64,000 nucleotides of DNA from an uncultured SAR86 cluster bacterium (GCA_902541365.1 CACBQK010000001.1:165851-229850), one strand, 5' to 3'; shown: positions 2,928 through 62,247, numbered from the stretch's first letter. The notes: generated from the sequence alone by a model not told the origin. Program-made: numbers and translations.

Positions 2928-2948
2928 ATAAATAATTGGATCAGTTAA

Positions 2949-6752: not shown

Positions 6753-6807
6753 CTTAATTTCCTTATTTTTACTATTGTTAATATAATATCATCTCCCAAA
6801 TTGCATT

Positions 6808-10388: not shown

Positions 10389-10390
10389 AA

Positions 10391-12974: not shown

Positions 12975-12978
12975 AAAA

Positions 12979-14612: not shown

Positions 14613-14613
14613 A

Positions 14614-35288: not shown

Positions 35289-36098
35289 ATGGGAAAAGTA
35301 ACTCCATTAAAAATTGATGTTAATGACGGTAGACTGCCTTTGAAAGATAAAGGCCTAGACATGAAAGATTTTTCATCTGTAGCCGAGTTAAGAAGAGATC
35401 AGCTTGAAAAGCTTGCTGCGGGTTTCAGAATGTTTGCACATTTTGGTTTTAACGAGGGTGTTGCAGGTCATATTACTTATAGAGATCCTGAATTCCCTGA
35501 TCATTTCTGGGTAAATCCTCTTGGTGTTCATTTCTCACAAATTTCGGTCTCAGATCTAATACTGGTAAATCATGATGGTGAAGTTGTACAAGGTGATAAA
35601 GCAGTCAATGTTGCCGCCTTTGCAATTCACTCAAGATTACATAAAGCAAGACCTGACGTTAATGCTGCAGCTCATTCTCATTCTATTTATGGAAGAACTT
35701 TTTCAACCCTAGGAAAATTATTAGATCCTATTTCTCAGGACGCTTGTGCTTTTTATGAAACTCAAGCTATTTATAAAGATTTTTCTGGTGTTGTTGAAGA
35801 AGTTGATGAAGGAGACCTAATTGCTGAAGCATTAGGAGATAAAAAAGTTATTATCCTTCAAAACCATGGAATTTTAACAACTGGTCCATCTGTCGATATA
35901 GCGCTATGGTTTTACACATCTATGGAGCGTTGCTGCCAAGCTCAATTGATGGCTGATGCTGCTGGTGAGATACAATTAATTCCTCATGATACAGCAATCA
36001 AAACAAGATCATTTATAGCTAATGACGTGGCTGCATGGGCAAGTTTTCAGCCTGCTTTTGATATGATCTGTAAAAAAGAGCCCGATTTATTCGACTAA
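35289..36098 (+). CDS. class II aldolase/adducin-family protein
   Basis: 269 aa. GVAGHITYRD, the zinc-ligand region AAAHSHS, and LQNHGILT. Confidence 0.7.
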   Translation: MGKVTPLKIDVNDGRLPLKDKGLDMKDFSSVAELRRDQLEKLAAGFRMFAHFGFNEGVAGHITYRDPEFPDHFWVNPLGVHFSQISVSDLILVNHDGEVVQGDKAVNVAAFAIHSRLHKARPDVNAAAHSHSIYGRTFSTLGKLLDPISQDACAFYETQAIYKDFSGVVEEVDEGDLIAEALGDKKVIILQNHGILTTGPSVDIALWFYTSMERCCQAQLMADAAGEIQLIPHDTAIKTRSFIANDVAAWASFQPAFDMICKKEPDLFD

Positions 36099-37514
36099 AG
36101 CACCAATTACTGCTTTCGTTTCTAAACATTCTTCTAGGCCATGTGTGCCATGCTCTCTTCCATTACCAGAAGAGCCATAACCACCAAAGGGTGCTGATCT
36201 AACTCTAGCTCCTTTATTGATAGTAACTTGACCGGCTCTTATTTTTGAAGCAACTTCTACTGCATGAGCCTGCTCACCTTGAACATATCCAGCAAGTCCA
36301 TACGGAGTATCATTTGCTATCTCGATAGCTTCTTCTTCAGTTTCATATTTAATTAAACACAAAACTGGACCAAAAATTTCTTCTCTAGCAATAGTCATAT
36401 CATTCGTTACATCAGAAAATATAGTTGGTTTGACATAATAGCCACTTTCACAACCATCTGGAAGACCAACGCCACCGGCAGATAGTGTTGCTCCTTCATC
36501 AATGCCAATCTGTATCATCCTTTGAACTTTTTCATATTGAGTCTTATTAGAAATTGGTCCCATTTTTGTATCGGCATCAAAAGGATCTCCAACCTTCATA
36601 GCATTAGCAGTATTAGCAGCAACTTCAACTGCTTTGTCATAGTTTTTAGATGACACTAGCATCCTTGTAGGTGCATTACATGATTGTCCTGTATTTAAGA
36701 AACACGAGGAGACTCCTGCGGATACGGCTTTATCAATATCCGCATCATCAAGAATTATATTTGCTGACTTTCCACCCAACTCCTGAGCTACTCTTTTCAC
36801 TGTTGGAGCTGAAGCTTGAGCAACAGCAACGCCTGCCCTTGTTGATCCAGTAAAATGCATCATATCAATATCTTTATGTTCAGACATTGAGGCACCAACA
36901 ACTGGACCCATACCGTTGACTAAATTAAAGATTCCAGCAGGAACACCAGCATCGTGAATAATTTCTGCAAGAATTATTCCGCAGAAAGGTGTTATTTCGC
37001 TTGGTTTTAGGACCATTGTACATCCAGCAGCTATGCCTGATGCTACTTTTGTACACATTTGATTCATTGGCCAATTCCATGGAGTGATCATTCCAACAAC
37101 ACCAACAGGCTCTTTTCGAACAAGATAGCCATCTTTTTCATACTCAAAATCATAGTGTTTAAGAACATTAAGAGTGTCTTTAAAATGTGTAAGGCCAGAA
37201 GCAACCTGAGCAACCTGAGATAGCCATATAGGAGCACCCATTTCCTTAGATATTGTCTCAGCTAACTCTTCAGATCTTTTTTCGTATTCTGAAATTATAC
37301 TTTCTAAGATTTGGACTCTTTCTTCTTTAGTTGAAAAACTAAAATCACTAAAAGCTGCTTTAGCAGCCGCCACAGCGTCATCAACGTCTTCAAAGTTTCC
37401 TGCAGTTATTACTCCAAGAACAGAATCATCTGACGGATTCATGACTTCAATTGTTTCAGTTGAATGAGAGTCGACCCACTCTCCATTTATGTACATTTGT
37501 AATTTTTCTAACAT
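36087..37514 (-). CDS. NAD(P)-dependent aldehyde dehydrogenase
   Basis: 475 aa. ITPWNWP, FTGSTRAG, ELGGKSA, catalytic Cys region NTGQSCNAP, and EEIFGPV. The 3' end overlaps the convergent aldolase gene by 12 nt. Confidence 0.9.
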   Translation of the reverse strand: MLEKLQMYINGEWVDSHSTETIEVMNPSDDSVLGVITAGNFEDVDDAVAAAKAAFSDFSFSTKEERVQILESIISEYEKRSEELAETISKEMGAPIWLSQVAQVASGLTHFKDTLNVLKHYDFEYEKDGYLVRKEPVGVVGMITPWNWPMNQMCTKVASGIAAGCTMVLKPSEITPFCGIILAEIIHDAGVPAGIFNLVNGMGPVVGASMSEHKDIDMMHFTGSTRAGVAVAQASAPTVKRVAQELGGKSANIILDDADIDKAVSAGVSSCFLNTGQSCNAPTRMLVSSKNYDKAVEVAANTANAMKVGDPFDADTKMGPISNKTQYEKVQRMIQIGIDEGATLSAGGVGLPDGCESGYYVKPTIFSDVTNDMTIAREEIFGPVLCLIKYETEEEAIEIANDTPYGLAGYVQGEQAHAVEVASKIRAGQVTINKGARVRSAPFGGYGSSGNGREHGTHGLEECLETKAVIGALVE

Positions 37515-37578: not shown

Positions 37579-38571
37579 CTAATGATATTTTAGATTTTCT
37601 AAAATACTCTTTCTTAGTCTTGACCTAGATATTTCTATATCCTGATTTTGCGAGTTTGATGAATTGATCCTTAAATCTTGGCCTATTTCTGACCTTTGAA
37701 TAAAACCTTTATCTAAATAACTATTGATTTGCTTTGTATATCTTTCTGGGCATTTAAAATTTGCTGGATAAATTGTTGTTACTTGCTTTCCTGATGAAAT
37801 TGATTCAGAGATCATCATTGCGCTGTCTTCAGTTACATATATACATTCGCTCATTGAGAAAAGTTTCTTCAGATCAGCATTTTTTCCACCTGCATGGAAC
37901 CAAATTGAATCACAACATAGATTGCTAAGGTTATTTCTAAGAGTTATCTCATGATCCTTATTTGATCTTCTTGATGTTACGCAAATGATTTCTTTATCTA
38001 GTTTATTAGTAAGATTATTTAAGGATTGTATAATATGATTTATATCATTCTTTGAGTAGAAATATCCCATACCCTCTCCTCCAAATAAGAAAAGAATCTT
38101 ATCAGAACTTATATCATTGTTAATGCAATTTTTTGGAGAGTACCTATTTGGTGTTATTTCATAAACAATGTTGTTTGATGCATCAGAATATTTCTCAGCC
38201 GTAAGGTGTGCATTAAATAACTCAGAACTAATTCCCCTAGGAGATCCTAACTGTATATTAGGTATTCCATATAGTTTTGATAAAGCGGCATTAATAGGAA
38301 AAGTATTTCCCCCAGCAGCAACAAGGAAATCAAATCCCTCAACATTAATTTTATCGAAGAATCTAAGAATCCATTTTGACTTTTTTTTCGACAGGTTATT
38401 ACATAATTTTCTTCCTATGATCTTAAAAAGAGACCTAAGTACTTTTACTTTCCATTTCATCTCTACAATTGAAAATTCCATTTCAATTTCTTCACTAAGG
38501 AGCATGCAAATACCAATTGATTGATTAAAGTGCCCAGGAACAGAATCGCTAATTATTAATGCTTTTTTCAT
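37579..38571 (-). CDS. ELM1/DUF1022-family protein (GT-B-like, function unknown in bacteria). Candidate glycosyltransferase.
   Basis: I place the start at ATG 38571 (MKKALIISDSVPGHFNQSIG). SRRS and VTEDSAMMISESISSGKQV match the ELM1 family pattern (xxSDGxxGHxNQxxG ... SRRTP ... VTxDSxSMxSEAxxTGKPV) as I remember it. Confidence 0.55.
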   Translation of the reverse strand: MKKALIISDSVPGHFNQSIGICMLLSEEIEMEFSIVEMKWKVKVLRSLFKIIGRKLCNNLSKKKSKWILRFFDKINVEGFDFLVAAGGNTFPINAALSKLYGIPNIQLGSPRGISSELFNAHLTAEKYSDASNNIVYEITPNRYSPKNCINNDISSDKILFLFGGEGMGYFYSKNDINHIIQSLNNLTNKLDKEIICVTSRRSNKDHEITLRNNLSNLCCDSIWFHAGGKNADLKKLFSMSECIYVTEDSAMMISESISSGKQVTTIYPANFKCPERYTKQINSYLDKGFIQRSEIGQDLRINSSNSQNQDIEISRSRLRKSILENLKYH

Positions 38572-39322
38572 AAGAAAGTATGTATTTATTAAAAAAAATA
38601 TCATTTTTCATTTTTTTCTCAACTTCACCTATATGATGTTCTTCATCAACACCAGTCATTACTTCATGTGTCAAAAAAGATCCTATTTTTATATCATTAT
38701 CAAGAAATCGCATCATATCTATTGATTCTATGATTTCATGCTTAGATGGTTTTAATTGAGAAAATTTCTCTAGTCCATTTGTCTTAAAAGCAATCATCCC
38801 GAGCTGCCTAAATCCAGATTTTCCATTAGCTGGTATGGCCGTTCTACTGAAATTAATAATATCTTTATCATTATTAATAATCGCTTTAACAATATTCGTA
38901 TCAATTAAGTCTTCATTTTCTATTGGATGAATTAAATTAATTACATCGTTATTTGATTCAGTAATTTCTTTTATTAATTGATCTATGGTTTCTGGATTAA
39001 TTTGTGGCTCATCTCCTTGAAGCAGAAGTACATTGTCATATAATTGACCATCGCTCTTAAGAATATCTAAAACTTCACATGCCCTTTCAGTTGCTCTCTC
39101 ATGCTTATCTGAAGTCATGATTGCTTTAAATCCTAGTTGATTTGATAACTCTATAATTTCTTTGTCTGGAGTTGCAAGAATAAGTTTATCTACATTCTTA
39201 CAGAGCAGAGCTCTATAATAACAATGCGCAATCATTGGAATACCAAGTATCATCTTAAGTGGTTTATTTGGGAATCTAGAAGAAGCTAATCTAGCTGGAA
39301 TTACAGCAAGAGTCCTAGTCAT
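38549..39322 (-). CDS. KdsB/NeuA-type cytidylyltransferase (CMP-2-keto-3-deoxy-sugar-acid synthetase family)
   Basis: 257 aa. N-terminus LAVIPARLASSRFPNKPLKMILGIPMIAHCY and LLLQGDEP are typical of the CTP_transf_3 family. Confidence 0.75.
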   Translation of the reverse strand: MTRTLAVIPARLASSRFPNKPLKMILGIPMIAHCYYRALLCKNVDKLILATPDKEIIELSNQLGFKAIMTSDKHERATERACEVLDILKSDGQLYDNVLLLQGDEPQINPETIDQLIKEITESNNDVINLIHPIENEDLIDTNIVKAIINNDKDIINFSRTAIPANGKSGFRQLGMIAFKTNGLEKFSQLKPSKHEIIESIDMMRFLDNDIKIGSFLTHEVMTGVDEEHHIGEVEKKMKNDIFFNKYILSYEKSINN

Positions 39323-40061
39323 CTTTAAACGGTTTTCTAGCAGTAGTTTCGAGCATCCTAAAATCGACAGAAAATGCTATCAACTCGTAACCATCAGAAA
39401 CTTTTTGGTTAAAACTTTCAATATTTGGCTCAACCACATGAATACCCTTACTTACATTGTGTTTTTCTGCCGCTTTGAGGATTTTCTTTTCCATATCAAT
39501 AAACTCAATTGTCTCAAACTTTCCTGGACTCCCTATCGAAGCAGATAGATCATATGGTCCTAAGAAGTATCCTGAAATATCACTAGCAAAGATTTCATCA
39601 ATATTTTCTACTGCTTCTTTTGATTCAATATTTACAAAGAGCTCTATATCACGGGAAGTAGACTTAATGTATTCCATCTTCATTTCTTCATCACCATATC
39701 CTTGAGCTCTGTAAAGACCCATTCCCCTTTTACCTTCTGGAGGATAAGAAGAATATGCAATAGCTTTTTTTACATCTGTAACGTTATTAACCATTGGAAC
39801 AATAACTCCTCTTGCTCCGAAATCTAAAACTTTTTTTATTTCAGCTTCATTGTTAGATGAAACTCTAACAAAAGGCTTTACACCTTTTAGATCGATAACT
39901 CTAATAAGTTTTTCTGCCTGTGATAATGTGATGGGTGTATGTTCCAAATCAATTGTAATCCACTCATAGCCAGAGTTACATAAAATCTCTGCAATGGCTT
40001 CACTATATATTGTTAACCAAGTCCCAATAGATGGTTTTTTCATATTATTTATTATTTTCAT
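39315..40061 (-). CDS. HpcH/HpaI-family class II (pyruvate-dependent) aldolase
   Basis: 248 aa TIM barrel. GTWLTIYSEAIAEILCNSGYEWITIDLEH, FVRVSSN, VIVPMV. Length and motifs match HpaI/HpcH-type aldolases. Confidence 0.7.
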   Translation of the reverse strand: MKIINNMKKPSIGTWLTIYSEAIAEILCNSGYEWITIDLEHTPITLSQAEKLIRVIDLKGVKPFVRVSSNNEAEIKKVLDFGARGVIVPMVNNVTDVKKAIAYSSYPPEGKRGMGLYRAQGYGDEEMKMEYIKSTSRDIELFVNIESKEAVENIDEIFASDISGYFLGPYDLSASIGSPGKFETIEFIDMEKKILKAAEKHNVSKGIHVVEPNIESFNQKVSDGYELIAFSVDFRMLETTARKPFKDD

Positions 40062-40962
40062 CTAGTCCTTCTATTGCTGCAAGTCCCATTGCAATAACTC
40101 CTTCTTCAGTCATGCTTCCTAGATGAGAGGTTGCAAAGAAGTTTTTTAGGTTCAATAGTGGAGAATCAAATGCTGGCTCAACCTCAAAAACATCAAATGC
40201 TGCAAAAGCTTTTTCATTATTTTTCAAAAAATTAAATAAATGCTCCTCATTTACTATGCCCCCTCTGGAAGTATTAATTATTTTTAAATCTTTCTTTGAG
40301 ATTTCAAAAAGTTTTTTATCTATAAAGCCTTTTGAGGAATCAGTTAAAGGCAAATGAATACTTACAATATCTGCATCTGCAAAAATTTCTTCAGCAGTGC
40401 TTTGAATAACTTCTTTTCTTTCTATTTGCTGAATGTCGAATCCAAGTATCTTACATTTATATGGCTTAAGAAAATCTGCTAAATGGTTTCCTATATTCCC
40501 AAAACCTAAGATACCAATAGTTTTATTTGTTAATTCTTGGCCTCTTGCTTGGCTCCAAATCCCATCTTTTATATTTGTCATGCTTAAATGTACTCTCCTT
40601 AAAGACATTAAAATGAGTAACATTGCCAGTTCTGCAACAGGCACCTTGTTAACTCCTGGTCGAAAACTAAGCCTAATATTTTTCTTATTTAATTCATCTA
40701 GATTGATGTTGTTTAATCCTACGCCATACTTACTGATAACCTCTAGATTAGGGAGATTATCTAATATTGTTGAATCAAATTTTTCTAGGCCAACAATAAC
40801 TTTATTGGCACCTTTTAAAAAATCTATTAAAGACTGACCGCTAAGTGATTTTCCTTCAGTGTTTAAAGTGACTTTCTCATATCTATTTCTAAGCTCGTCT
40901 ACTAATGTTTTATTTTTTGAGAAAGATCTAGATGTGACAGCTACTTCATCTTTTTTATTCAT
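40045..40962 (-). CDS. D-isomer-specific 2-hydroxyacid dehydrogenase (PGDH/GyaR-like)
   Basis: 305 aa. NAD site GILGFGNIGNHLA, HLPLT, SRGGIVNE and the catalytic His region FFATSHLGS. Confidence 0.8.
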   Translation of the reverse strand: MNKKDEVAVTSRSFSKNKTLVDELRNRYEKVTLNTEGKSLSGQSLIDFLKGANKVIVGLEKFDSTILDNLPNLEVISKYGVGLNNINLDELNKKNIRLSFRPGVNKVPVAELAMLLILMSLRRVHLSMTNIKDGIWSQARGQELTNKTIGILGFGNIGNHLADFLKPYKCKILGFDIQQIERKEVIQSTAEEIFADADIVSIHLPLTDSSKGFIDKKLFEISKKDLKIINTSRGGIVNEEHLFNFLKNNEKAFAAFDVFEVEPAFDSPLLNLKNFFATSHLGSMTEEGVIAMGLAAIEGLDENNK

Positions 40963-41699
40963 AAGCAGTTGTTGTTTGCTATTACATCCACTTTAAATTG
41001 ATCATCACGATAAGGCTTATATGAATAACTTCCACCTGCTGCTTTTATAATACAAAGTCCAGCAGCTATATCCCATAAGTAAATGCCCTTTTCTTGATAT
41101 TGATCAAACTGTCCAGATGCAACGAATGCACAAGACATTGCGGCTGATCCAATCATTCTAACTTTTTTCCACCTTACCAACTCAGTAGAGAGTTCTATCA
41201 TAAAATCTTCATCAAATTTACCTCTTGCAGGAAATCCTGTAGCAAGAGTTGCATTAGATTGGTTATCTATTGATGAGACATTTATCTCAAGCCCATTAAG
41301 CTTAGCACTTGAATTTATAGTTCCTTCATAAAGAGCATTTTGATTAAAATCATTTATAACGCCTAAAACAATTTCATCTTCATAAATTAAGGCAATTGAA
41401 ATGCAGCACATTGGAAAATTCCTTGAATAATTAGAGGTCCCATCTAAAGGGTCAACCACCCAAAAGCTTTTTCCTAAATCTTTATTAGCTCCTGACTCTT
41501 CAGCAAGAATTGGGAATTTAGAATTGGCTGTTAGAAACTCTTTTATTATTTTTTCTGATTCTACATCTGCCTTTAGTTTTACATCTCTTCCTTCATTCGA
41601 AAGAATTTTGTTAACATTTTCTCTTTCATTTATAAGTAATTTACTAGCTCCGATAGAAGCTTTTTTTGCATTTTCTAACTCTTTTTCAATATCAATCAT
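40959..41699 (-). CDS. inositol-monophosphatase-fold sugar phosphatase
   Basis: I place the start at ATG 41699 (MIDIEKELENAKKA), overlapping the upstream TGA by 8 nt. Metal motifs ILAEESG, WVVDPLDGTSNY and WDIAAG. Confidence 0.75.
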   Translation of the reverse strand: MIDIEKELENAKKASIGASKLLINERENVNKILSNEGRDVKLKADVESEKIIKEFLTANSKFPILAEESGANKDLGKSFWVVDPLDGTSNYSRNFPMCCISIALIYEDEIVLGVINDFNQNALYEGTINSSAKLNGLEINVSSIDNQSNATLATGFPARGKFDEDFMIELSTELVRWKKVRMIGSAAMSCAFVASGQFDQYQEKGIYLWDIAAGLCIIKAAGGSYSYKPYRDDQFKVDVIANNNCL

Positions 41700-42282
41700 C
41701 TTTAAAGTAAGCTCTAAAAAAAGATCCAACCAAGCCACAAATAACCATATGCAAATCTTCCGCTGGACCATATTCACCGACTTTAGTAGGAACATGAATA
41801 TTGAGATTAACTAATTTAGACAGTTTTCCTCCATCAAAAGCAGATAGTCCAACTGTTTGGATATTATTACTATTAGCCCAATCTACTGCCTTGATAATAT
41901 TAGGTGAATTTCCGGATGCTGAAATCGATACGAGAACATCGCCACTTTTTGCTTGTGTTTGTAGTTGTTGTAAAAAAATATTTTCATAACCGTCATCATT
42001 TCCAATTGCAGTTATGACTGCTTGATTGTCACATAAACTTATAGCTCTAAAAGGTTTTTCAAATTGCCTACTTCCTAATGAAATATCATTTACAAAATGA
42101 CTTGCAGTTGATGCACTTCCTCCATTACCAATAAAATAAATTGTCTTATCATTCTCTCGAGTTTGTAAAATTAACTCAATAAATTTACTGATATTCTCAA
42201 TTGAGAGCTCATCTATAAGGATTTTTAAATAAGAAAAGTAATTCTCTGAAAACTTTCTTGAAGATGAGGCATCATTAATCAT
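41692..42282 (-). CDS. SIS-domain sugar-phosphate isomerase (GmhA-like)
   Basis: 196 aa. IYFIGNGGSASTASHFVNDI and VSISASGNSPN match the phosphoheptose-isomerase-type SIS domain. Confidence 0.75.
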   Translation of the reverse strand: MINDASSSRKFSENYFSYLKILIDELSIENISKFIELILQTRENDKTIYFIGNGGSASTASHFVNDISLGSRQFEKPFRAISLCDNQAVITAIGNDDGYENIFLQQLQTQAKSGDVLVSISASGNSPNIIKAVDWANSNNIQTVGLSAFDGGKLSKLVNLNIHVPTKVGEYGPAEDLHMVICGLVGSFFRAYFKDD

Positions 42283-43300
42283 TTTTATAATACTTTTCTT
42301 TCCATTCTGGATCAGATTTATAAATCTTTTCTATTAAATCCATAATTTCAATAGCTTGCTTAATAGAACCATTAACTATGTTATCAAAGTTTCTAATTGC
42401 ATCGGTAAAACTTGCTACTTCTAAATCCCATGATACATCTTCATCAAACTTAAAGACCTCTTCATTAGGATCTCCCTTATCATTATCTGGATCAGATGAA
42501 ATAATCTTTAAAGTTTCATTTCCATAGCTTTTTGAGCTTGTGAGAAGACCTCCTAAAACAAGAGATCCTCTTTCTAGAGTAATTTCAAGCTTAAAAGTAT
42601 GTCTCCATTGAGTTGCTGAGGAGTGTAATTGAGCTACAACACCATTATTGTTTTCCATCAAAACAAAGGCATTATCCTCAACATCATAGTTCCAATATGA
42701 GTTTTTTATAATTGAAAAGATTTTATTAAATCTACCCGCAAAATAATTCATAAGATCTAACATGTGAATACCTTGATCCAATAGAATCCCACCACCAGAT
42801 TTCTCTCGTTCTGTTCTCCAATCAGTTTGATTAAAGCTTATCATCTTAGATTTTCCATAAATCCCTTTCATATTTATTATCTTCCCGAGCTCATAACGAT
42901 CTATTATTTGTTTTGCTTTTATTATTGAGGAGTGAAATCTATGATTAAACCCATACATAAGTTTTAGATTTGAGTCTTTCATAAAGTTCTCAATTGGCTT
43001 TAGCTCCCTGAGACTTTTTGCAGGAGGTTTTTCACAAAAAACATGCATTCCTCTTTTTAAACCCATTAAGGTAGCTTCAGCAGCAAAATTGTTTGGTAGA
43101 CTTATAAAGAGTACATCTATTGTCTTATCATCAATAAGATCCTTGAAATCAGAGTAGCATTTTAATCCTTCAAATTTGCTCTCTTCACCAAAGCTTATGT
43201 CAGAGAGAGCAGTAACTTTGAAGCCGGGTATTTTCTTAATTGCAGAGTGTCTTCTTTTGCCAACTACTCCATATCCAACGATACCAACTTTATATATCAT
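42275..43300 (-). CDS. Gfo/Idh/MocA-family NAD(P) sugar oxidoreductase
   Basis: 341 aa. Rossmann N-terminus KVGIVGYGVVGKR and the EKP motif (HVFCEKPPA). Confidence 0.75.
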   Translation of the reverse strand: MIYKVGIVGYGVVGKRRHSAIKKIPGFKVTALSDISFGEESKFEGLKCYSDFKDLIDDKTIDVLFISLPNNFAAEATLMGLKRGMHVFCEKPPAKSLRELKPIENFMKDSNLKLMYGFNHRFHSSIIKAKQIIDRYELGKIINMKGIYGKSKMISFNQTDWRTEREKSGGGILLDQGIHMLDLMNYFAGRFNKIFSIIKNSYWNYDVEDNAFVLMENNNGVVAQLHSSATQWRHTFKLEITLERGSLVLGGLLTSSKSYGNETLKIISSDPDNDKGDPNEEVFKFDEDVSWDLEVASFTDAIRNFDNIVNGSIKQAIEIMDLIEKIYKSDPEWKEKYYKND

Positions 43301-44445
43301 TAAGAGTTCTGATAAGTAACTCTGTAAATAACATTTGCCCCATCATCAGATATAAGAATTGACCCATCACTTTTTTGAAAAACAGATGCAGGTCTTCCTA
43401 AAACTTTTTCCTGGCCATTACTTTTTTGTAACCAGCCTGTTATAAAATCTTTGTGATATAGCAACTCTCCATTTTCATCAAAATGAACAGCTATTACCTT
43501 ATAGCCAACTTTCCTTGATCGGTTCCATGATCCATGAAGTGTCATAAATAAAGTATTCTTATATCTTGCTGGAAAATGATCTCCATCATAAAAAGATAAT
43601 CCTGTAGGAGCTACATGAGCACCAAGCTCAAGAATAGGATCAATAAATTCCTCAACATTGTCTGGTATTTTTTTTGAATAATCTGGATCTAGCACATCCA
43701 TTGAATGTTTATATGGATACCCATAAAAAGAATCATCGTTTATTACAACATTTAACTCACATGATGGCATATCATCGCCCATCCAATCTCGACCGTTATC
43801 ACCAAAATAGAGATTATTGGTTTGAGGGTGCCAATCAAACCCAACTGTATTCCTGACGCCTCTGGCTACATATTCCCATTCACCATCATTCAATCTCATA
43901 ATCGAGGCATATCTCTTATCAAAGTTATACTTTTCTTCAAGTGAAGGGTTACAAATATTACATGGTGCACCAACGGGAACATAGAGTTTATTATCTGGAC
44001 CAAAATCAATCCATTTCCAACCATGCCATGTATCAGAAGGTAAATTATTAGTAACCAAAACTTTTTCTGGCATTTGTTCTGAACTTAAAAGAGCTTCATC
44101 AATATTTGGGATTTTCCAAATAGAGCTCACCTCTGAAAAATAAAGATCACCATCGTGGTAGGTAACACCAGTTGAATTAGATAGTCCTTTGGCTATAACT
44201 CTAATATCTTTGTTGCTATCAATTACACTTATAGTGCCCGCATTCCTTGATCCAACAAATATATTGCCAGACTCACTCTCAGCAATTTGTCTTGGAGTAT
44301 CTATATTGTCCACAAATATTTCTATTGAAAAGCCTTTTTCAATCTTGAGATTCTTGATGAGTTTTGAAGAATCAGAAGAAACATTTGAAGAAAAAGATAT
44401 AATTATCAATAGGGATAAAAAAAACATACAATTTAACTTTTTCAT
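43300..44445 (-). CDS. secreted PQQ-dependent (sorbosone/soluble glucose dehydrogenase-like) beta-propeller sugar dehydrogenase
   Basis: I place the start at ATG 44445 (MKKLNCMFFLSLLIIISFSSNVSS, a signal peptide). The track ORF runs to 44628, inside the divergent gene. GAPCNIC, RGVRNTVGFDWHP and NGRDWMGDD resemble the GSDH/sorbosone dehydrogenase family. Confidence 0.65.
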   Translation of the reverse strand: MKKLNCMFFLSLLIIISFSSNVSSDSSKLIKNLKIEKGFSIEIFVDNIDTPRQIAESESGNIFVGSRNAGTISVIDSNKDIRVIAKGLSNSTGVTYHDGDLYFSEVSSIWKIPNIDEALLSSEQMPEKVLVTNNLPSDTWHGWKWIDFGPDNKLYVPVGAPCNICNPSLEEKYNFDKRYASIMRLNDGEWEYVARGVRNTVGFDWHPQTNNLYFGDNGRDWMGDDMPSCELNVVINDDSFYGYPYKHSMDVLDPDYSKKIPDNVEEFIDPILELGAHVAPTGLSFYDGDHFPARYKNTLFMTLHGSWNRSRKVGYKVIAVHFDENGELLYHKDFITGWLQKSNGQEKVLGRPASVFQKSDGSILISDDGANVIYRVTYQNS

Positions 44446-45715
44446 GATTAAGATTATACCAGTAGCCCTTTTCTTTTTGAGCTTTTTTGCATCCTTAGTT
44501 TCTAATGCATGGCTTAGGATCTTTGCAAGGAAAAATAATTTTCTTATAGACAGACCTGATAAATACAGAAAGTTCCATAAAGATCCGACGCCACTGACTG
44601 GAGGAATTGGCATTACTTTTGGTATCATTTTCAGTGGAATATTTCTTTTCTTTTTAACTGATACAAGTTATACCTCAGAGGTTTCTGTAAATAACTTTTT
44701 AGGACAAGATCAAAATGAATCCCATTTAATTCAAATTAATGAAGAAAAGGGAATAGTGATTGAAAGAGTTAATGATGATAGTTTCTCAATCACTCTTCCA
44801 GATGGTAATAAAAGCATCTATAAAATTTCTGATAGCGGTGAATCTATACTGTTATCAACAAGCAATAGCTCAAAAGATTTAATAATTTCTAATTTTAGCT
44901 TTGGACTTGCATTATTCACGATCCTACTCCAGTTTTTGATGACATTTGATGATCTTCGTGGCTTAAAAGCACTAACAAGACTTTTAATACAAGCTGGCTG
45001 TACTACTGGTTTAATATTTTTTAGTGGTGTTTATCTAGAAAGCTTAGGTAATTTATTTGGTTTTGGAGAAATATATCTTGGGCTTTGGGGCATACCATTT
45101 ACTGTTTTTTGCATTGTTGGCATGGTCAATGCTTTTAATATGATTGATGGACTAAATGGTCTCTGTGCAAGTTTGTGCTTGGTTTGTTTTATGGCAATTA
45201 TCTATATGATTAATGCCGATACTGTTCCAAGCTTATTTCCATTGATTTTACCTGTAGGAGCTATAACGGGTTTTCTAATGTATAACCTTGGAGTTTTAGG
45301 TAATCAAAGAACAGTTTTTCTGGGCGATAATGGTTCAAACGCATTAGGTTTTATGTGTGCTTGGATTCTTGTTTACTTTAGCTCTGTCGAAAATTCTAAC
45401 TTTGCACCTGTTACTGCATTGTGGTTTGTTGCCATTCCCTTCTTCGATGCAGTTGGTGTTATGGTGTCCAGAGCTATAAAAGGAATAATGCCACTAAGAC
45501 CGGGAAGAGATCATCTTCACCATAAATTATTAGATATGGGGTTATCTTCTAATACTATTTATGTTGTTTTAATTTTAATATCTACCTCATTTGCAGCTAT
45601 TGGATATATCTTCAATTATAGTTTTCCTGAGAGTCAAAGTATTTCGTTTTATACCTTTATAGCTGTCTGGTTATGTTATTATTTTTTAATAAGGTTTATT
45701 CCAAAAAATGTTTAG
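44444..45715 (+). CDS. WecA/MraY-family polyprenyl-phosphate sugar-1-phosphate transferase (GT4 initiating enzyme) with an inserted hydrophilic segment
   Basis: I place the start at ATG 44444 (MIKIIPVALFF...RIFARKNNFLIDRPDKYRKFHKDPTPLTGGIGI), which aligns with the E. coli WecA N-terminus. FDDLRG, NAFNMIDGLNGL and FLGDNGSN are family motifs. The track start at 44189 is antisense to the dehydrogenase gene. Confidence 0.8.
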   Translation: MIKIIPVALFFLSFFASLVSNAWLRIFARKNNFLIDRPDKYRKFHKDPTPLTGGIGITFGIIFSGIFLFFLTDTSYTSEVSVNNFLGQDQNESHLIQINEEKGIVIERVNDDSFSITLPDGNKSIYKISDSGESILLSTSNSSKDLIISNFSFGLALFTILLQFLMTFDDLRGLKALTRLLIQAGCTTGLIFFSGVYLESLGNLFGFGEIYLGLWGIPFTVFCIVGMVNAFNMIDGLNGLCASLCLVCFMAIIYMINADTVPSLFPLILPVGAITGFLMYNLGVLGNQRTVFLGDNGSNALGFMCAWILVYFSSVENSNFAPVTALWFVAIPFFDAVGVMVSRAIKGIMPLRPGRDHLHHKLLDMGLSSNTIYVVLILISTSFAAIGYIFNYSFPESQSISFYTFIAVWLCYYFLIRFIPKNV

Positions 45716-46136
45716 TTTTTTTAAGAAAAAAGAGAAAGGAGAAGAAAAAGCTCCTAAGAATCTAAAATTAATTGCACTTTGTTTGGCTTTTGAAGTTGCA
45801 AATGCAGATAATGACATTGATGTTAGAGAAAGAGATCTAATTTTAGAAAAGATTAAAGAATCTATAGACCTAAGTATTCTAACTGAAAAAGAAATTTTTG
45901 AAGTTATTCAAGAAGAAAGTGAGAAAAGAGTCTCATTTTACGACATCATTAACGATATCAATCAAAACTTGGATAAAAAAGAGAAGATTGATGTTTTAAA
46001 GATGCTTTGGGAAATAGCCTATGCTGACAAAGTATTGGATGTTGATGAAGAGAGAATAATAAGAAGATCTGCAGAAATGCTAGGTATTAAACCATCAATA
46101 GTACTTCAAACAAAAGAAGAATTTAAAAATCAATAG
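45708..46136 (+). CDS. TerB-like (tellurite-resistance TerB / DjlA-N type) domain protein
   Basis: 142 aa. Two amphipathic repeats with acidic motifs (ANADNDIDVRERDLI ... AYADKVLDVDEERIIRRSAEMLGI), as in the TerB family. 8-nt overlap with the WecA-like gene. Confidence 0.55.
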   Translation: MFSFFKKKEKGEEKAPKNLKLIALCLAFEVANADNDIDVRERDLILEKIKESIDLSILTEKEIFEVIQEESEKRVSFYDIINDINQNLDKKEKIDVLKMLWEIAYADKVLDVDEERIIRRSAEMLGIKPSIVLQTKEEFKNQ

Positions 46137-48000
46137 TAGCTGAATTTTTTTTTGATATTCTTAGTGCCTCATCTCTGGAGCACTTGAAATTTATATCTTT
46201 TACAAACTCTTCAAAAGAATCGTCGCCAATATAGTTTGTAGTTTCGTATAAAAGTATGCATTTTTCTTCATTATCAATTATTGGAGAGGATAATATTTCA
46301 TTCACTAATTCTTGCATGCTTAAATCAAGATAATCTATTCTAAGATCTTTTTTTTCATCAATATGAAGAATACTTTTATCAGTTTTAGGATTATATTTAT
46401 TCCAAATAATATCATTTGAGGATTTGCCAGGCACGCCATTTTTAGCAAACTCAGTCCAAAAATTCATCATATTCTTTGAAACAAAACGCCTAGAAGGAGA
46501 TCGAGGATATATAATCCAAGCAAATTCTTCTGCAAGGCTGAAATCTCCACTTATCATTGGTATTTCTAATGCATGAGCAGATCCAATAATCTTTCCAAAA
46601 TCTCCAATAAAAAAATCTCTTAAATTATCCCAATCATATCTATAGGCATATAAATCTTCATTGCCTGCATCAAACATATTCTCAAGCGGCTCTTGAACTC
46701 CTCTAAGTTGCCATCCTTTTGATCTAATTTCATTATAGAATTGATATTTATCTTCATCTTTAATTTCAACTTTGGGTATACCAATACCCCTAGAAAGAAA
46801 AGATTGATTAGTTTCTATGAAATATTTTGAAAATCCAAGCCACAGCTTTATTTCATCTTTGTTTGATCCAGCAATTGTTGGAACCTTATTTAAATATTCT
46901 TTTGAGCGAAGGGATTCTTTAAGGCCAATTTCAGGAATTACTAAACCATCATTAGTAAGCAAAGGAGTCTCAAAAGTATCGCCATAAAGATTTACCAGCT
47001 CTTGAGCATTTGTCTCATAAAGAATTTTTCTAATATCCTCTTTATTAGAATCTAATTGAAATTTATTTGCCTCATCTAGATCGTCAGCTAACTTTTTATT
47101 AACAATTATTTTATTTAACACAGTCCAACTATCAGATACGCCCTCCTCATTAAAGTTTTCGGACTTGTAGGCATCTTGTAATGATGAAGATTTTGTATAG
47201 CCTGATTGCGAAATTGCTTTATGGAATAAACCTTTCGCTTGTTTAGCAACTAAAAGCGATAATACATTATGTCCACCAGCAGACTCACCAAAAATAGTAA
47301 TATTATTAGGATCACCTCCAAAAGAAGCTATATTCTCATTGACCCATCTAAGTGCTAGCACTATATCTAGGATCCCAAAATTGGAGGTCTTATCTATGCC
47401 TGAATGAAAGTCTTGAATTGCTGGATGAGTAAAAAAGCCAAGTGGTCCCAAACGATAATTTGGTGAAACAACGATAACATCTTTCCTTTTTACCAGTTCT
47501 GAGAAATTATAAAAATCTTTATGTCCTGAAGTATTACCTCCTCCATGTATCCAAAACATAACTGGCAAATTATCTCTACCTCCATGAGGTGCTCTTATAT
47601 CAAGATATAAGCAGTCCTCCGTTCCAGCTTGATTTATTTCTTGAATTTGGCCACCAACTTCTTGATGACAAAAATTATTTTCTTTCGGATTAATATGAAA
47701 ATCTTTAGCAACAAAAGCTACTGGTGCCTTCCATCTTAAATTTCCTAAAGGAGGAAGTGCAAATGGAATATCCTCCCAATACAGAATTCCTTCTGTTCTT
47801 TGAGAAAGAACCTTCCCAGATGAAGTCTGAACAAAATCTCCCTTGAAGGTTTTAGCTCCAATGTAGTTAAAACTATCACCTTTATCTTGGTAATAATCAT
47901 AAGTTGACGGATTAGTAATTTCTTCAGGGACACCTACAACAGTTCCACAAAATATAACTATAAAAAGTTTAAAAGATTTTATATTTCTCAATAAGCTCAT
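46123..48000 (-). CDS. type-B carboxylesterase/lipase, secreted
   Basis: 625 aa with a signal peptide. EDCLYLDI, WIHGGG, and the nucleophile elbow FGESAGG. Confidence 0.8.
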   Translation of the reverse strand: MSLLRNIKSFKLFIVIFCGTVVGVPEEITNPSTYDYYQDKGDSFNYIGAKTFKGDFVQTSSGKVLSQRTEGILYWEDIPFALPPLGNLRWKAPVAFVAKDFHINPKENNFCHQEVGGQIQEINQAGTEDCLYLDIRAPHGGRDNLPVMFWIHGGGNTSGHKDFYNFSELVKRKDVIVVSPNYRLGPLGFFTHPAIQDFHSGIDKTSNFGILDIVLALRWVNENIASFGGDPNNITIFGESAGGHNVLSLLVAKQAKGLFHKAISQSGYTKSSSLQDAYKSENFNEEGVSDSWTVLNKIIVNKKLADDLDEANKFQLDSNKEDIRKILYETNAQELVNLYGDTFETPLLTNDGLVIPEIGLKESLRSKEYLNKVPTIAGSNKDEIKLWLGFSKYFIETNQSFLSRGIGIPKVEIKDEDKYQFYNEIRSKGWQLRGVQEPLENMFDAGNEDLYAYRYDWDNLRDFFIGDFGKIIGSAHALEIPMISGDFSLAEEFAWIIYPRSPSRRFVSKNMMNFWTEFAKNGVPGKSSNDIIWNKYNPKTDKSILHIDEKKDLRIDYLDLSMQELVNEILSSPIIDNEEKCILLYETTNYIGDDSFEEFVKDINFKCSRDEALRISKKNSATIDF

Positions 48001-49462
48001 ATCGTTCTAAAAAAGGATTTCTTAAAGCTCTTACTTTGTTGCCAATAAGTGCTAATTCGAACGAATCATTATAATTGTTCCACGAGAAATCTCCAAAACT
48101 TGGATCACCAGTTTTAGAAAAGTTTGTCCATGGTAATTGGAAATTATCAGAAATTTCTTGAGATTCTTTTGGACCCCAGGTTGAATAAGGTTTTTTTGAG
48201 TGCACGCCAAATACATATGGAAGTTCTGAAGCATGAAAACATCCTAATTTTCCTCTAATGATTTCGCTTTGTGTCGAAAATAAATATCCAAAGGAATTTC
48301 CTGCCTTTTTTTGAAGAATGTTGTGTGTTGGTATACCAAAACAGATATCAGTGAGTATTGCTGAATATATATCACCTAACTCACTAATTTTAAGATATTC
48401 ACTGTAGGCAGATATTAGTTCTGGTAATTTACTGGATTCAAACATTTTTGATAACCTTCTAGTTATATATCCTTCATCATTTTTACCTATTCTTGGATGG
48501 AAAGCACTCCAAAGCTTGTATTCATCTAAAGTTGTACCAGCAATTAAATGAGTACTTGAAGATGAATATGTTTCTAAGTAATCATCCATAATAAATTTAT
48601 TATCTATAACTGGTAGAAAGCCAACTTCAGGGAAAATCCATCTCTTTCCATCGCTTAATGCTGAGTGTTTTAATTTCTTAGCTGTTTTAGTTATCAACTC
48701 CCAGTGACATGATCTTAAATCAGAAATTTTATGACCATCATTTTCAAATTGTCCAATGAATAGTTCAGCCCATAAATTTGCTTTTTCTTTTGTAGCTATC
48801 GCATCAAGACCTCCGCTCTGACAAATTGCTTTTTGGAATAGATTATTATCTCCTGCTGCAATTTGAAGATTGCAACTCCAAGAACCTGCAGACTCACCAA
48901 AAATAGTAATATTGTTTGGATCTCCTCCAAAAGAAGAAATATTATCTTTTACCCATCGCAGTGCATTCCTTTGATCTATCAATCCCTCGTTTCCAGATGA
49001 ATCGATTTGTCCCTCTGTAACTTCATCAAGTCTCATAAAGCCAAGAGGGCCTAATCTATAATTTATAGATACGACAACTATTCCTCTTTTTGCTAAATGC
49101 TTTAAGTCATACATGATACTGCTTGAGCCGCCAGTTACTAGAGCACCACCATGTATCCAGATCATTACTGGTTTTTTAGCTTCAATATCATTTGTGCAAA
49201 TATTTAAAGTTAAACAATCTTCGGATTGTTTTGATAAAGAATTATCCTGAAAAAAACTCATACCCGATTGACTTTGATCAACAGATCTTGTCTGAGGTGC
49301 TGAATATCCCTTTTCTGTAACCTTGAGATTTAACTCTTTCTCAATAAGAAAAGATGCACCCCACCTTTGCTCATACTCTGCATATGGTATACCAAAAAAA
49401 TGGTGGCAGTTGTCTTGAAGCACTCCTTCAAATTGACCAGCCTTACATTGAATCAAACTCAT
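47969..49462 (-). CDS. type-B carboxylesterase/lipase, no signal peptide
   Basis: I place the start at ATG 49462 (MSLIQCKAGQFEG). The track start at 49561 would run through the tRNA gene. EDCLTLNI, WIHGGA, FGESAGS. The stop overlaps the start of the downstream paralogue by 32 nt. Confidence 0.8.
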   Translation of the reverse strand: MSLIQCKAGQFEGVLQDNCHHFFGIPYAEYEQRWGASFLIEKELNLKVTEKGYSAPQTRSVDQSQSGMSFFQDNSLSKQSEDCLTLNICTNDIEAKKPVMIWIHGGALVTGGSSSIMYDLKHLAKRGIVVVSINYRLGPLGFMRLDEVTEGQIDSSGNEGLIDQRNALRWVKDNISSFGGDPNNITIFGESAGSWSCNLQIAAGDNNLFQKAICQSGGLDAIATKEKANLWAELFIGQFENDGHKISDLRSCHWELITKTAKKLKHSALSDGKRWIFPEVGFLPVIDNKFIMDDYLETYSSSSTHLIAGTTLDEYKLWSAFHPRIGKNDEGYITRRLSKMFESSKLPELISAYSEYLKISELGDIYSAILTDICFGIPTHNILQKKAGNSFGYLFSTQSEIIRGKLGCFHASELPYVFGVHSKKPYSTWGPKESQEISDNFQLPWTNFSKTGDPSFGDFSWNNYNDSFELALIGNKVRALRNPFLERYELIEKYKIF

Positions 49463-49530
49463 TATTTTCCTTAAGTTTAATATTATATAACAATAGATAA
49501 ATACTAAAGTTGTGAAATATAATGTGACTT

Positions 49531-49607
49531 CGGGATGTAGCGCAGCCTGGTAGCGCACCACACTGGGGGTGTGGTGGTCGTCGGTTCAAATCCGGCCATC
49601 CCGACCA
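49531..49607 (+). tRNA. tRNA-Pro (anticodon GGG), CCA encoded
   Basis: Hand-folded cloverleaf, 77 nt. Acceptor CGGGATG/CATCCCG, D stem GCGC/GCGC, anticodon stem CCACA/TGTGG with loop CTGGGGG, T arm GTCGG-TTCAAAT-CCGGC, and A-CCA tail. Confidence 0.9.
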
Positions 49608-51598: not shown

Positions 51599-51815
51599 CA
51601 GTTACTCCTCTAAACACCGATTATGCACAAAATACCCAAATATGGCAATAAATCTTACTTTTTTTAGGCAACATATTTAGCTAAAAAAGTATTTGCCTAA
51701 GGTCCTCAAAATTGTGCTAATTTAAATGAAATTACTTGTTAATATTATACCCTTTATGTATGAAATATGTAAAAAAAAAATACACAAATTCTTTTTTACC
51801 TCAATTTCAAACTAG

Positions 51816-53753: not shown

Positions 53754-53759
53754 TTTAGT

Positions 53760-59931: not shown

Positions 59932-60633
59932 CTATCTATTTCTTAAAATCCTTAATAGATTTCCGATACTATATTTAGGATTTCTATCGAAATAGTGAGA
60001 AAGGAATGTGATCCTAGAATGTTCAGAATCTGAGCTTAGCGGATAGTTGCAATGAAAAGTTGTTCTTCCAAGAAAAACTAAAGGTTTAAAATCAAGGAAG
60101 TTAAAATTTATATTCTTTTTTCTGCTACTTAAGAAGTTTAAACCTTTTTCATTTGAGAAAATCTTAAAATAAATTTTTTGAAAAATATTAATTATCTCAG
60201 AAGTTGTATCACTCTTTATTTTTGGGAATGCAATGAGAGAACCATCATGATTTACATTAGAAGGAATTAGAATTGGGAAAACAATTGTGAAAATGTGAGA
60301 ATCGAAATGACCTCTGTATGCTTCAGATGACTTCCCAGGTAGAACATGTCTTGAAATCTTGTATTGATTGTCTATAGACCCCTTAAAGTTTAGTTGTTTT
60401 TTAGCATAAGAAAATAAAACTGGCTCAAGATTATTTTTTAAATCAAGAGTCTCTTCAAGAAGTGCATGAGATTTTGAGCTCTCTAGATAAGTTTTTTCTA
60501 TTAATTCTTTATTTGCAAGATCTATGATTTGATCAAAGTTGTTGAGCTTCTTTATTGATGGAAGAAAACTATATCCATTTTTATCAAGTTCATCGATAAA
60601 ATTTAAGTAGTTAAAATCTGAAAAGTAATCCAT
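59932..60633 (-). CDS. hypothetical protein, possible Fe(II)/2-oxoglutarate-dependent oxygenase fold
   Basis: 233 aa. Candidate facial triad YRGHFDSH ... TTFHCN, followed by SRITFLSHYF (an Arg for the 2OG carboxylate). The assignment rests on short motifs only. Confidence 0.35.
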   Translation of the reverse strand: MDYFSDFNYLNFIDELDKNGYSFLPSIKKLNNFDQIIDLANKELIEKTYLESSKSHALLEETLDLKNNLEPVLFSYAKKQLNFKGSIDNQYKISRHVLPGKSSEAYRGHFDSHIFTIVFPILIPSNVNHDGSLIAFPKIKSDTTSEIINIFQKIYFKIFSNEKGLNFLSSRKKNINFNFLDFKPLVFLGRTTFHCNYPLSSDSEHSRITFLSHYFDRNPKYSIGNLLRILRNR

Positions 60634-60649
60634 TATTGTTTAGCAAGTT

Positions 60650-61222: not shown

Positions 61223-61223
61223 C

Positions 61224-62243: not shown

Positions 62244-62247
62244 GTTG

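Follow-up and report, generated by a model that had tools for sequence, protein, structure and literature searches.

A SAR86 operon with an HpcH-type aldolase and a KdsB-sister cytidylyltransferase, and its probable product, a CMP-activated acid sugar other than Kdo

What would be made by an operon that seems to follow the pathway to cytidine monophosphate-activated 3-deoxy-D-manno-octulosonate (CMP-Kdo) with enzymes of other families? The question is raised by eight minus-strand genes in a stretch of 64,000 nucleotides from an uncultured SAR86 cluster bacterium (GCA_902541365.1, CACBQK010000001.1:165851-229850), which was analysed at its full length and is called here the window, with positions counted from its first letter (Table 1). 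In a Pfam scan, the encoded proteins carry, in gene order, the domains GSDH, GFO_IDH_MocA, SIS_2, Inositol_P, 2-Hacid_dh, HpcH_HpaI, CTP_transf_3 and Mito_fiss_Elm1. The answer that we consider moderately probable is that the operon represents the SAR86 form of a widespread cassette making a CMP-activated 2-keto (ulosonic-type) sugar acid other than Kdo. The biosynthesis of CMP-ulosonic acids is already known as a kind of pathway, to which an aldolase-based cassette would add a variant.

The operon and its recurrent core

The initial annotation of this locus had read the eight genes as one chained operon devoted to a glycan precursor, and this description is borne out: the genes were recovered at the same coordinates, the profile scores agree with each of the eight families named, and all seven junctions overlap (by 1, 8, 8, 4, 17, 8 and 23 nt in gene order). 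Overlapping junctions were found in 14 of the 42 other same-strand neighbour pairs of the window, which is ~97% coding, and the packing of the operon is tighter than this background, though overlaps are common in this SAR86 window. The gene starts at 44445, 41699 and 38571 are backed by the lengths of homologues.

The aldolase of the window is 98% identical to one from a SAR86 single-cell genome, the sole locus that came from the genome-collection scan, and homologues at 52-62% identity fill the corresponding slot of the chromosome in other SAR86-type contigs (loci are cited below by L numbers). This slot is flanked on one side by a TerB gene and the initiating transferase, and on the other by genes for an aldehyde dehydrogenase, a class II aldolase/adducin protein, fumarase and IMPDH. 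The GSDH, Inositol_P, 2-Hacid_dh, HpcH and CTP_transf_3 genes are constant across the SAR86-type slot loci. The pair of GFO and SIS_2 genes is carried by the window, L009, L011 and L028, its place being taken in L002 by GFO, SDR and DHQ-synthase-like genes together with a second IMPase gene, and L004-L008 are without GFO, SIS_2, SDR or DHQ-synthase-like genes. In a metagenome scan, aldolase, dehydrogenase, IMPase, cytidylyltransferase and ELM1 genes were all present in nine of nine well-flanked SAR86-type loci, with GFO in eight and SIS in three. The commonest SAR86 layout in the sample is a seven-gene order without SIS, as seen in L029 (cytidylyltransferase 88% identical to that of the window), where GFO is directly followed by IMPase (2835-4632). 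The exact eight-gene order does recur, at 43% ELM1 identity, in L028, a SAR86-type contig of 681 kb, so that the synteny first proposed holds as one of several variants, SIS and ELM1 being missing from some SAR86 loci.

The first three genes of the operon appear to lie outside the core. The GSDH-type gene stands first in every SAR86-type locus with enough flank and was not seen among the non-SAR86 cassettes examined; its product has a signal-like N-terminus (MKKLNCMFFLSLLIIISFSSNVSS), a weak profile score (41 bits) above the cut-off of 25, and weak PDB matches, and would be an add-on confined to SAR86-type loci. The GFO protein, whose best PDB matches are inositol 2-dehydrogenase, levoglucosan dehydrogenase and glycoside 3-dehydrogenases, may carry out an accessory redox step. 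As for the SIS protein, its best PDB matches are phosphoheptose isomerases and GmhA is its nearest family, although it stays below the GmhA cut-offs (TIGR00441, 103.7 vs 209; NF010546, 106 vs 276), and it is 44-48% identical to its orthologues in L022 and L025. By these matches the gene is GmhA-like, not KdsD-like, and an optional accessory. Since it is found in only three of the nine well-flanked SAR86-type loci and is missing from L029, the 'isomerise' step that had been assigned to it as a KdsD-like enzyme is not a conserved one. The homologies of the SIS and DHQ-synthase-like proteins point to sedoheptulose 7-phosphate. A module of GFO, SDR and DHQ-synthase-like (sugar-phosphate-cyclase-type) genes accompanies the cassette repeatedly, in SAR86 as well as in unrelated lineages (L002 5535-12237, L025 10881-14380, L093 and L099), with 43% identity between the DHQ-synthase-like proteins of L002 and L025.

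Outside SAR86, six distant members of the cytidylyltransferase subfamily described below were looked up individually (L022-L027), and all six contexts hold a 2-hydroxyacid dehydrogenase gene and an HpcH-type gene, the latter as a weak PK/HpcH-like match in L023. In L022, a Deltaproteobacteria metagenome-assembled genome (MAG), the contiguous series GFO-SIS_2-2-Hacid_dh-Inositol_P-HpcH lies 6 kb from the cytidylyltransferase gene in one long glycan cluster. L023 shows 2-Hacid_dh-SDR-CTP_transf_3-ATP-sulfurylase followed by the PK/HpcH-like gene; L024 has HpcH, CTP_transf_3 and 2-Hacid_dh inside ~3.4 kb with a HAD gene nearby; L025 reads HpcH-CTP-2-Hacid_dh-GFO-SIS_2-SDR-DHQS; L026 reads HpcH-CTP-2-Hacid_dh-epimerase, followed by a Glucosamine_iso-family gene (6-phosphogluconolactonase/NagB) and then by a HAD gene; and in L027, HpcH-CTP-GFO is followed by IMPase and 2-Hacid_dh genes. 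The neighbours of these cassettes include Wzy, Wzx, Wzz, glycosyltransferases, sulfotransferases, methyltransferases and radical-SAM enzymes. A second non-SAR86 sample, made up of 14 metagenome loci flanked by 3 kb or more on each side, contains the aldolase in ten loci, the dehydrogenase in ten and at least one of these two in all 14, together with a HAD hydrolase of the L024/L026 type in eight, an IMPase in one and GFO in two.

The recurrent unit is thus composed of aldolase, 2-hydroxyacid dehydrogenase, phosphatase and cytidylyltransferase, a core so named because the cytidylyltransferase adjoins the other three in SAR86 and in unrelated lineages. The dehydrogenase, which had been taken for an extra, ranks with the aldolase among the genes most constantly found with the cytidylyltransferase, whereas a phosphatase step filled by non-homologous enzymes agrees with what had been proposed, with an IMPase in SAR86 and a HAD protein in other lineages. 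At 29-51% identity, the proteins of the cassette are orthologous across lineages (Table 1).

Several observations were made beside the non-SAR86 cassettes. The large uncharacterised proteins encoded next to them show no homology to each other or to ELM1. One protein of 580 aa, encoded directly upstream of the L025 aldolase gene (6374-8116) and with no Pfam match on record, looks FkbH-like by eye, with a HAD-type DxDxT motif (FDCDNTLWKG) and a C-terminal acyltransferase-like part; FkbH enzymes act on glycerate-derived units. Sulfate-activation (ATP sulfurylase, APS kinase) or sulfotransferase genes lie beside several of the cassettes (L023 1554-2063 and 10780-11844; L025 16011-17057; L026 7336-8337), which hints at a sulfated sugar acid or glycan. 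The first 20,927 positions of L024 (1-20927 of a 127-kb contig) contain a second CTP_transf_3 gene and many very small open reading frames (ORFs) without Pfam matches, and the contig may be a large phage or virus, or an unusual genome. Among cultured organisms, a block in Campylobacter coli 76339 (BN865_07090-07150) resembles, by annotation, the L026-type cassette: it comprises aldolase, phosphoglycerate dehydrogenase (PGDH)-like, epimerase, cyclase, HAD and sialyltransferase-like genes beside capsule genes, and is an entry without assigned function in a comparative-genomics table (PMC3928612).

Table 1. Predicted features of the window, with the profile matches on which they rest and, for cassette proteins, the identity to the window protein across lineages
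Feature	Positions	Strand	Basis	Identity (%)
Operon of eight genes	37579-44445	minus	ORF listing of the window	
Secreted six-bladed-propeller protein, soluble glucose/sorbosone dehydrogenase (GSDH/TrAA12) type	43300-44445	minus	PF07995 41 bits	
Gfo/Idh/MocA NAD(P) oxidoreductase (GFO)	42275-43300	minus	PF01408/PF22725/PF02894	48-51
SIS_2 sugar-phosphate isomerase, GmhA-like	41692-42282	minus	PF13580 69 bits	44-48
IMPase-fold phosphatase	40959-41699	minus	PF00459 154 bits	36-41
D-isomer-specific 2-hydroxyacid dehydrogenase	40045-40962	minus	PF02826 153 bits, PF00389 61 bits	29-47
HpcH/HpaI class II (metal-dependent) 2-oxoacid aldolase	39315-40061	minus	PF03328 112.8 bits	37-41
CTP_transf_3 cytidylyltransferase, KdsB-sister subfamily	38549-39322	minus	PF02348 131.5 bits (cut-off 22.6)	37-42
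ELM1/DUF1022 (KdoT-family) GT-B glycosyltransferase	37579-38571	minus	PF06258 83.1 bits (cut-off 27)	
Aldehyde dehydrogenase, downstream of the operon	36087-37514		ORF listing	
WecA/MraY-family polyprenyl-phosphate sugar-phosphate transferase	44444-45715	plus	PF00953 99 bits; TIGR02380 215 bits (below the 326 cut-off)	
TerB-domain protein, neighbour of the initiating transferase	45708-46136	plus	PF05099 88 bits	
Two tandem overlapping COesterase genes	46123-49561			
Surface protein with four Ig-like repeats	49889-51598			
YjbH-family outer-membrane exopolysaccharide protein	51816-53753			
Wza-like export protein	53760-55514		Poly_export+SLBB	
Low-GC (28-29%) run of small genes	59932-63969	minus		
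Atu/Liu-like cluster	6808-15702			

A sister subfamily of KdsB

The cytidylyltransferase belongs to the CTP_transf_3 family, as first annotated, but it is not an orthodox KdsB. It passes the subfamily model NF003952 (219.5, cut-off 193), misses the KdsB equivalog TIGR00466 (142.7 vs 155.2) and stays below NF003948 (160 vs 281) and NF009905 (221 vs 255); its identity is 30% to E. coli KdsB and 34% to KpsU, the latter being its best PDB match (1GQ9, 121 bits). The comparison with KdsB covered nine sequences from six phyla, namely E. coli KdsB, its capsule paralogue KpsU, the characterised Aquifex enzyme (checked separately) and the proteins of Fusobacterium, Cupriavidus, Neisseria, Parabacteroides, Sinorhizobium and Streptomyces, and the motifs H-SGT-R, xHxGxY and LEQLR are kept in all nine, Aquifex included. 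At the positions of SGT-R, xHxGxY and LEQLR the window protein reads HERATER, RQLGMI and ESIDMMR, and all the SAR86 operon cytidylyltransferases show HER(A)T-R, RQLGMI and ES(I/V)DMMR in place of the KdsB motifs. The C-terminal domain of KdsB binds Kdo (PMC3149649), and the RQxGxI and ESxDMxR changes fall in that domain, the argument being one from conservation and not from structure.

These changes are shared by a very large group of proteins. Of the best 150 cluster representatives at 50% identity, 106 have glutamine at the position of the KdsB histidine (xHxGxY) and most have D-M instead of the E-Q of LEQLR, and among the 118 top readable profile matches ES.D..R is present in all and LEQLR in none. 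A profile built from 37 members puts the size of the subfamily at at least 7,984 90%-identity clusters (E < 1e-30), with members in MAGs of Deltaproteobacteria, Omnitrophota and Zambryskibacteria, the last of them from the candidate phyla radiation (CPR). When plasmid records were searched by tblastn, the cytidylyltransferase found only ordinary kdsB/kpsU genes at no more than 36% identity, and the Streptomyces and Aestuarium contexts of these matches were uninformative. Judged by its motifs, the cytidylyltransferase is a member of this sister subfamily and no orthodox KdsB, and it probably makes a CMP-activated donor. The altered motifs of the sugar domain and the systematic association, across many lineages, with an HpcH aldolase are the reasons why a CMP-activated acid sugar distinct both from Kdo and from the nonulosonic acids of the NeuB type is the probable product, in keeping with the initial annotation.

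In a different reading, which we hold to be unlikely, this protein would be the SAR86 version of CMP-Kdo synthetase, as would its whole subfamily elsewhere, and the ELM1 protein would be a KdoT that puts one more Kdo on the inner core of lipopolysaccharide (LPS), with Kdo itself being made by the aldolase, dehydrogenase and phosphatase, for example through conversion of arabinose 5-phosphate into D-arabinose, which would then be joined to pyruvate. Classical enzymology includes a Kdo aldolase activity that splits Kdo into D-arabinose and pyruvate and would suit such a route. Moreover, the NF003952 model is passed, public sources label proteins of the subfamily KdsB, the core genes occur at a fixed site in every well-flanked SAR86-type locus, neither KdsA (DAHP_synth_1) nor KdsC (HAD) nor KdsD (SIS+CBS) was found in the operon or the scanned ORFs of the 64-kb window, and the sole characterised enzyme of the ELM1 family uses CMP-Kdo (PMC12856342). 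However, the histidine and LEQLR motifs kept throughout KdsB, from that of Aquifex to that of E. coli, are replaced in every member of the subfamily, TIGR00466 is missed, and a route to Kdo would have no use for the constant dehydrogenase. Neither would it explain why the cassettes lie within variable O-antigen/capsule-type clusters (with sulfotransferase, methyltransferase and radical-SAM genes) and not beside lpx/waa genes, nor why the subfamily has a member in a CPR bacterium, a group that to our knowledge lacks LPS.

A possible route and its transferase

The aldolase is proposed to form the C-C bond of the acid sugar. Its residues H41, R66, E146 and D171 align with H49, R74, E153 and D179 of YfaU (catalytic His/Arg and metal-binding Glu/Asp), and its scores against the equivalog models of HpaI, GarL and RhmA (122-146 bits) miss all the cut-offs (369-441), for which reason it is not placed among the aromatic-catabolic enzymes. 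Against full-length cassette aldolases of other lineages it scores 150-182 bits, its best PDB match reaching 111 bits. With YfaU/RhmA, HpaI, GarL and the hydroxy-ketoacid aldolase SwHKA it shares fold and catalytic residues, and these enzymes join pyruvate, or in some cases hydroxypyruvate, to aldehydes to give 4-hydroxy-2-oxo acids. The known HpcH/HpaI aldolases are catabolic enzymes or biocatalysts, without a nucleotide-sugar role in the literature searched, whereas the SAR86 aldolase groups with those of glycan clusters and, unlike known members, misses the HpaI/GarL/RhmA cut-offs. A full-text literature search found no paper that joins an HpcH aldolase to a CMP-sugar pathway, a JBC 2026 paper on threonate and the SugarBase preprint proving unrelated.

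The dehydrogenase keeps the catalytic Arg-Glu-His triad, and among PDB entries it matches short phosphoglycerate dehydrogenases best and glyoxylate/hydroxypyruvate reductases next. A role as true SerA (3-phosphoglycerate dehydrogenase) was considered and is held to be unlikely, given that the equivalog TIGR01327 is missed (194, cut-off 454) and that, in the alignment with human PHGDH, the residues R54 (VRS Arg), R75 (GR Arg) and R135, which we take to be the phosphate-binding arginines, are replaced by a gap or G, by K and by Q, respectively; the protein is therefore probably no true 3-phosphoglycerate dehydrogenase. As for the phosphatase, the metal-site motifs DPLDGT and WDIAAG are present in its translation, and it is taken to be the dephosphorylating enzyme of the putative pathway.

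The scheme that follows is drawn from gene order, families, conservation, subfamily motifs and a predicted GT-B fold, and each chemical step, as well as the product, is put forward conditionally. The dehydrogenase and the phosphatase would start by preparing one of the reactants from a metabolite that is phosphorylated or a 2-hydroxy acid, in the neatest version by turning 3-phosphoglycerate or D-glycerate into hydroxypyruvate; alternatively, the phosphatase may act once condensation is over and strip a terminal phosphate, in the manner of KdsC. The aldolase would then link a 2-oxo acid, either pyruvate or hydroxypyruvate, with an aldehyde or aldose, producing a 4-hydroxy-2-oxo sugar acid, which the cytidylyltransferase would couple to CMP. 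Finally, the ELM1/KdoT-like GT-B enzyme would transfer the sugar acid to a lipid-linked acceptor, which would be either the LPS core or a glycan that the divergent WecA-type enzyme initiates. The GFO protein, the GmhA-like isomerase and the SDR and DHQ-synthase-like enzymes could be regarded as lineage-variable modules for tailoring or substrate supply. Pyruvate needs no dedicated supply and the dehydrogenase is constant, which suggests that the donor is not pyruvate or that one of the two partners comes from a 2-hydroxy acid. A specific version, which remains doubtful though clearly less so than the readings that we call unlikely, is that hydroxypyruvate derived from D-glycerate or 3-phosphoglycerate either acts as the donor, so that a 3-hydroxy (Ko-like) acid is formed, or takes the acceptor role by way of its tautomer, tartronate semialdehyde, in which case the product is a diacid.

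Several points weigh against the proposal that the cassette builds a CMP-activated acid sugar other than Kdo. The NCBI KdsB subfamily model NF003952 is still passed by the cytidylyltransferase; no aldolase lies within 8 kb at four of the 14 non-SAR86 loci; ELM1 is absent from the SAR86 loci L009-L012; and flippase, polymerase and ligase genes are lacking within the operon, which bears on the acceptor. With regard to the dehydrogenase, its constancy has no place in a simple scheme of pyruvate plus aldose, and the probable loss of the phosphate-binding residues weakens the version of the first step that begins with 3-phosphoglycerate.

Another reading is an oxidative route that dispenses with aldol condensation in making the acid. 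Here the SIS protein would isomerise a ketose phosphate, the GFO protein would oxidise C1 and the dehydrogenase C2, and dephosphorylation would lead to a 2-keto-aldonic (3-hydroxy) ulosonic acid, the aldolase being left with a side role in supply, salvage or retro-aldol epimerisation. Such a route sets four enzymes in a straight line, each in a reaction typical of its family, and it fits with GFO and SIS being the best-kept cassette proteins across lineages (44-51% identity) and with the 6-phosphogluconolactonase/NagB-family gene that stands beside the dehydrogenase and HAD genes in L026. However, both genes are variable (SIS in three of nine SAR86 loci, GFO in two of 14 others), several SAR86 loci have neither, and the aldolase, usually the immediate neighbour of the cytidylyltransferase, is far more constant, so that we regard the oxidative route as improbable, to the same degree as the synthesis of Kdo.

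It is very improbable that the operon encodes a catabolic, non-phosphorylative sugar-acid pathway, made up of the periplasmic sugar dehydrogenase, GFO, a 2-ketoacid reductase, the aldolase and the downstream aldehyde dehydrogenase, in which the cytidylyltransferase and ELM1 genes would be unrelated passengers. The GSDH, GFO and HpcH families do take part in oxidative sugar catabolism, JGI labels relatives as RhmA or GarL aldolases, and an aldehyde dehydrogenase gene follows the operon; but the latter stands apart as a piece of the conserved flank, and the operon lacks genes for a dehydratase, a lactonase, a transporter and a regulator. Besides, the overlaps extend through all the junctions, those of aldolase, cytidylyltransferase and ELM1 included, and the linkage of aldolase, cytidylyltransferase and dehydrogenase repeats in unrelated lineages within glycan-assembly clusters. 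A phosphonate pathway, which could also combine a 2-hydroxyacid dehydrogenase, an aldolase and a cytidylyltransferase, was rejected, since PEP mutase is lacking and the cytidylyltransferases and aldolases of phosphonate metabolism are of other families.

Returning to the CMP-activated acid sugar, its transfer can be assigned to a candidate enzyme. In Acinetobacter baumannii, A1S_2903 was implicated in 2024 in the third core Kdo addition (PMC10936431), and in December 2025 it was described in JBC as KdoT, a CMP-Kdo transferase in vitro (PMC12856342), which overturns the earlier statement that ELM1/DUF1022 proteins have no assigned bacterial function. The invariant SRRT motif of KdoT includes R180, which is required for activity and modelled beside the carboxylate of the donor, and the mutant is complemented in part by a homologue from Rickettsia (PMC12856342). 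The SAR86 protein reads TSRRS, which corresponds to the SRRT motif as that paper describes it, and its residues T199, S200, R201 and R202 are invariant among 27 SAR86-type homologues, most of which read SRRT. Its AlphaFold (AF2) model (pLDDT 92, pTM 0.89) has a GT-B fold with the Ser-Arg-Arg motif after the first strand of the C-terminal domain, and the top PDB matches found with Foldseek are all GT-B proteins: UDP-GlcNAc 2-epimerases, GT1 glycosyltransferases, MurG, heptosyltransferase II and polysialyltransferase. No match to the ELM1 protein was found by tblastn on plasmid records. Because it belongs to the KdoT family, keeps the invariant Ser-Arg-Arg and is modelled as GT-B, this protein is likely the transferase for the CMP-activated product, the candidacy that the initial annotation had given it. 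It resembles KdoT in its PF06258 domain (the sole Pfam match), its GT-B fold, its Ser-Arg-Arg-(Thr/Ser) at the start of the C-terminal domain and its length of ~330 aa. However, the KdoT gene lies in a lipooligosaccharide (LOS) core locus and its product uses the ordinary CMP-Kdo donor with Kdo2-lipid IVA as acceptor, whereas the SAR86 gene is translationally coupled to that of a non-canonical cytidylyltransferase and stands beside a polyprenyl-phosphate initiating transferase.

The proposed route can be set against the two known ones. With the Kdo pathway (KdsD, KdsA, KdsC and KdsB; KpsF and KpsU for capsules) it would share a 2-keto sugar acid, the removal of a phosphate and activation by a CTP_transf_3 enzyme, but the SAR86 operon has a class II HpcH aldolase instead of a synthase of the KdsA/DAHP-synthase type, dependent on phosphoenolpyruvate (PEP), a phosphatase of the IMPase fold instead of a HAD protein, a GmhA-like isomerase that is optional, an obligatory 2-hydroxyacid dehydrogenase without Kdo counterpart, and a cytidylyltransferase without the conserved H and LEQLR residues. 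The NeuB, PseI and LegI pathways (with NeuA, PseF and LegF) resemble it in their variable surface-glycan loci, their CMP-activated alpha-keto acid sugars and their dedicated transferases, but no NeuB-type synthase, aminotransferase or acetyltransferase is encoded in the SAR86 operon, and its cytidylyltransferase is distant from NeuA/PseF (E ~1e-5 to 1e-11). A broader reading, to which we give slightly less than even weight, is that an HpcH aldolase and a KdsB-sister cytidylyltransferase constitute a third bacterial route to CMP-ulosonic acids, beside those of KdsA and NeuB, leading to a new acidic sugar in many phyla, CPR bacteria among them. The aldolase would condense pyruvate, or hydroxypyruvate made by the dehydrogenase, with an aldehyde or aldose, examples of the product would be a Ko-like 3-hydroxy acid, a diacid and an acid with more carbons, and the cassette would be a fixed trait of the SAR86 cell surface.

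Neighbouring genes and biological meaning

The head-to-head neighbour of the operon, announced as a WecA-type initiating transferase, is confirmed in its family (Table 1), and this WecA/MraY-family enzyme is likely the initiator of a lipid-linked glycan. The two genes share the sequence CATG at 44443-44446, in which the ATG of the WecA-type gene (44444-44446) overlaps that of the first operon gene (44445-44443), and in L002 the gap between them is of 1 nt (4379-4381). With divergent start codons that overlap or lie 1 nt apart, the promoter and ribosome-binding site of each gene must therefore fall within the coding sequence of the other. A scan for promoters and terminators gave a number of sites no higher than chance. 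The initiating enzyme varies among SAR86 loci, being either of the WecA type or, in other loci, a Bac_transf (PglC-type) protein accompanied by a Polysacc_synt_2 dehydratase.

The TerB gene adjoins the initiating transferase in L002, L004, L007, L009, L011 and L028, and it is flanked in the window by the tandem COesterase genes, which keep the same position in other SAR86 loci. At 5-10 kb from the operon, three export/surface genes (49889-55514) offer a possible route of glycan export. The low-GC run near the end of the window contains a GT2 glycosyltransferase, a GNAT protein and a hexapeptide acyltransferase, and could be a second, possibly hypervariable cluster for glycan modification; its ORFs at 59932-60633, 62248-63075 and 63613-63969 are without Pfam match. 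The make-up of the Atu/Liu-like cluster, with genes for a carboxyltransferase, a biotin carboxylase, AtuA, an enoyl-CoA hydratase, a DUF1330 protein and two acyl-CoA dehydrogenases, suggests that acyclic terpenes or branched acids are broken down.

If the proposal is true, thousands of database proteins labelled 'KdsB' or 'CMP-Kdo synthetase' would be mislabelled, and ELM1/KdoT transferases would be linked to donors besides CMP-Kdo. An aldolase-built, CMP-activated acid sugar would be a missing piece of bacterial sugar chemistry that is testable with four small soluble enzymes. For SAR86, which are abundant bacteria of the ocean, it would constitute a conserved determinant of the cell surface, with a bearing on phage recognition and grazing.

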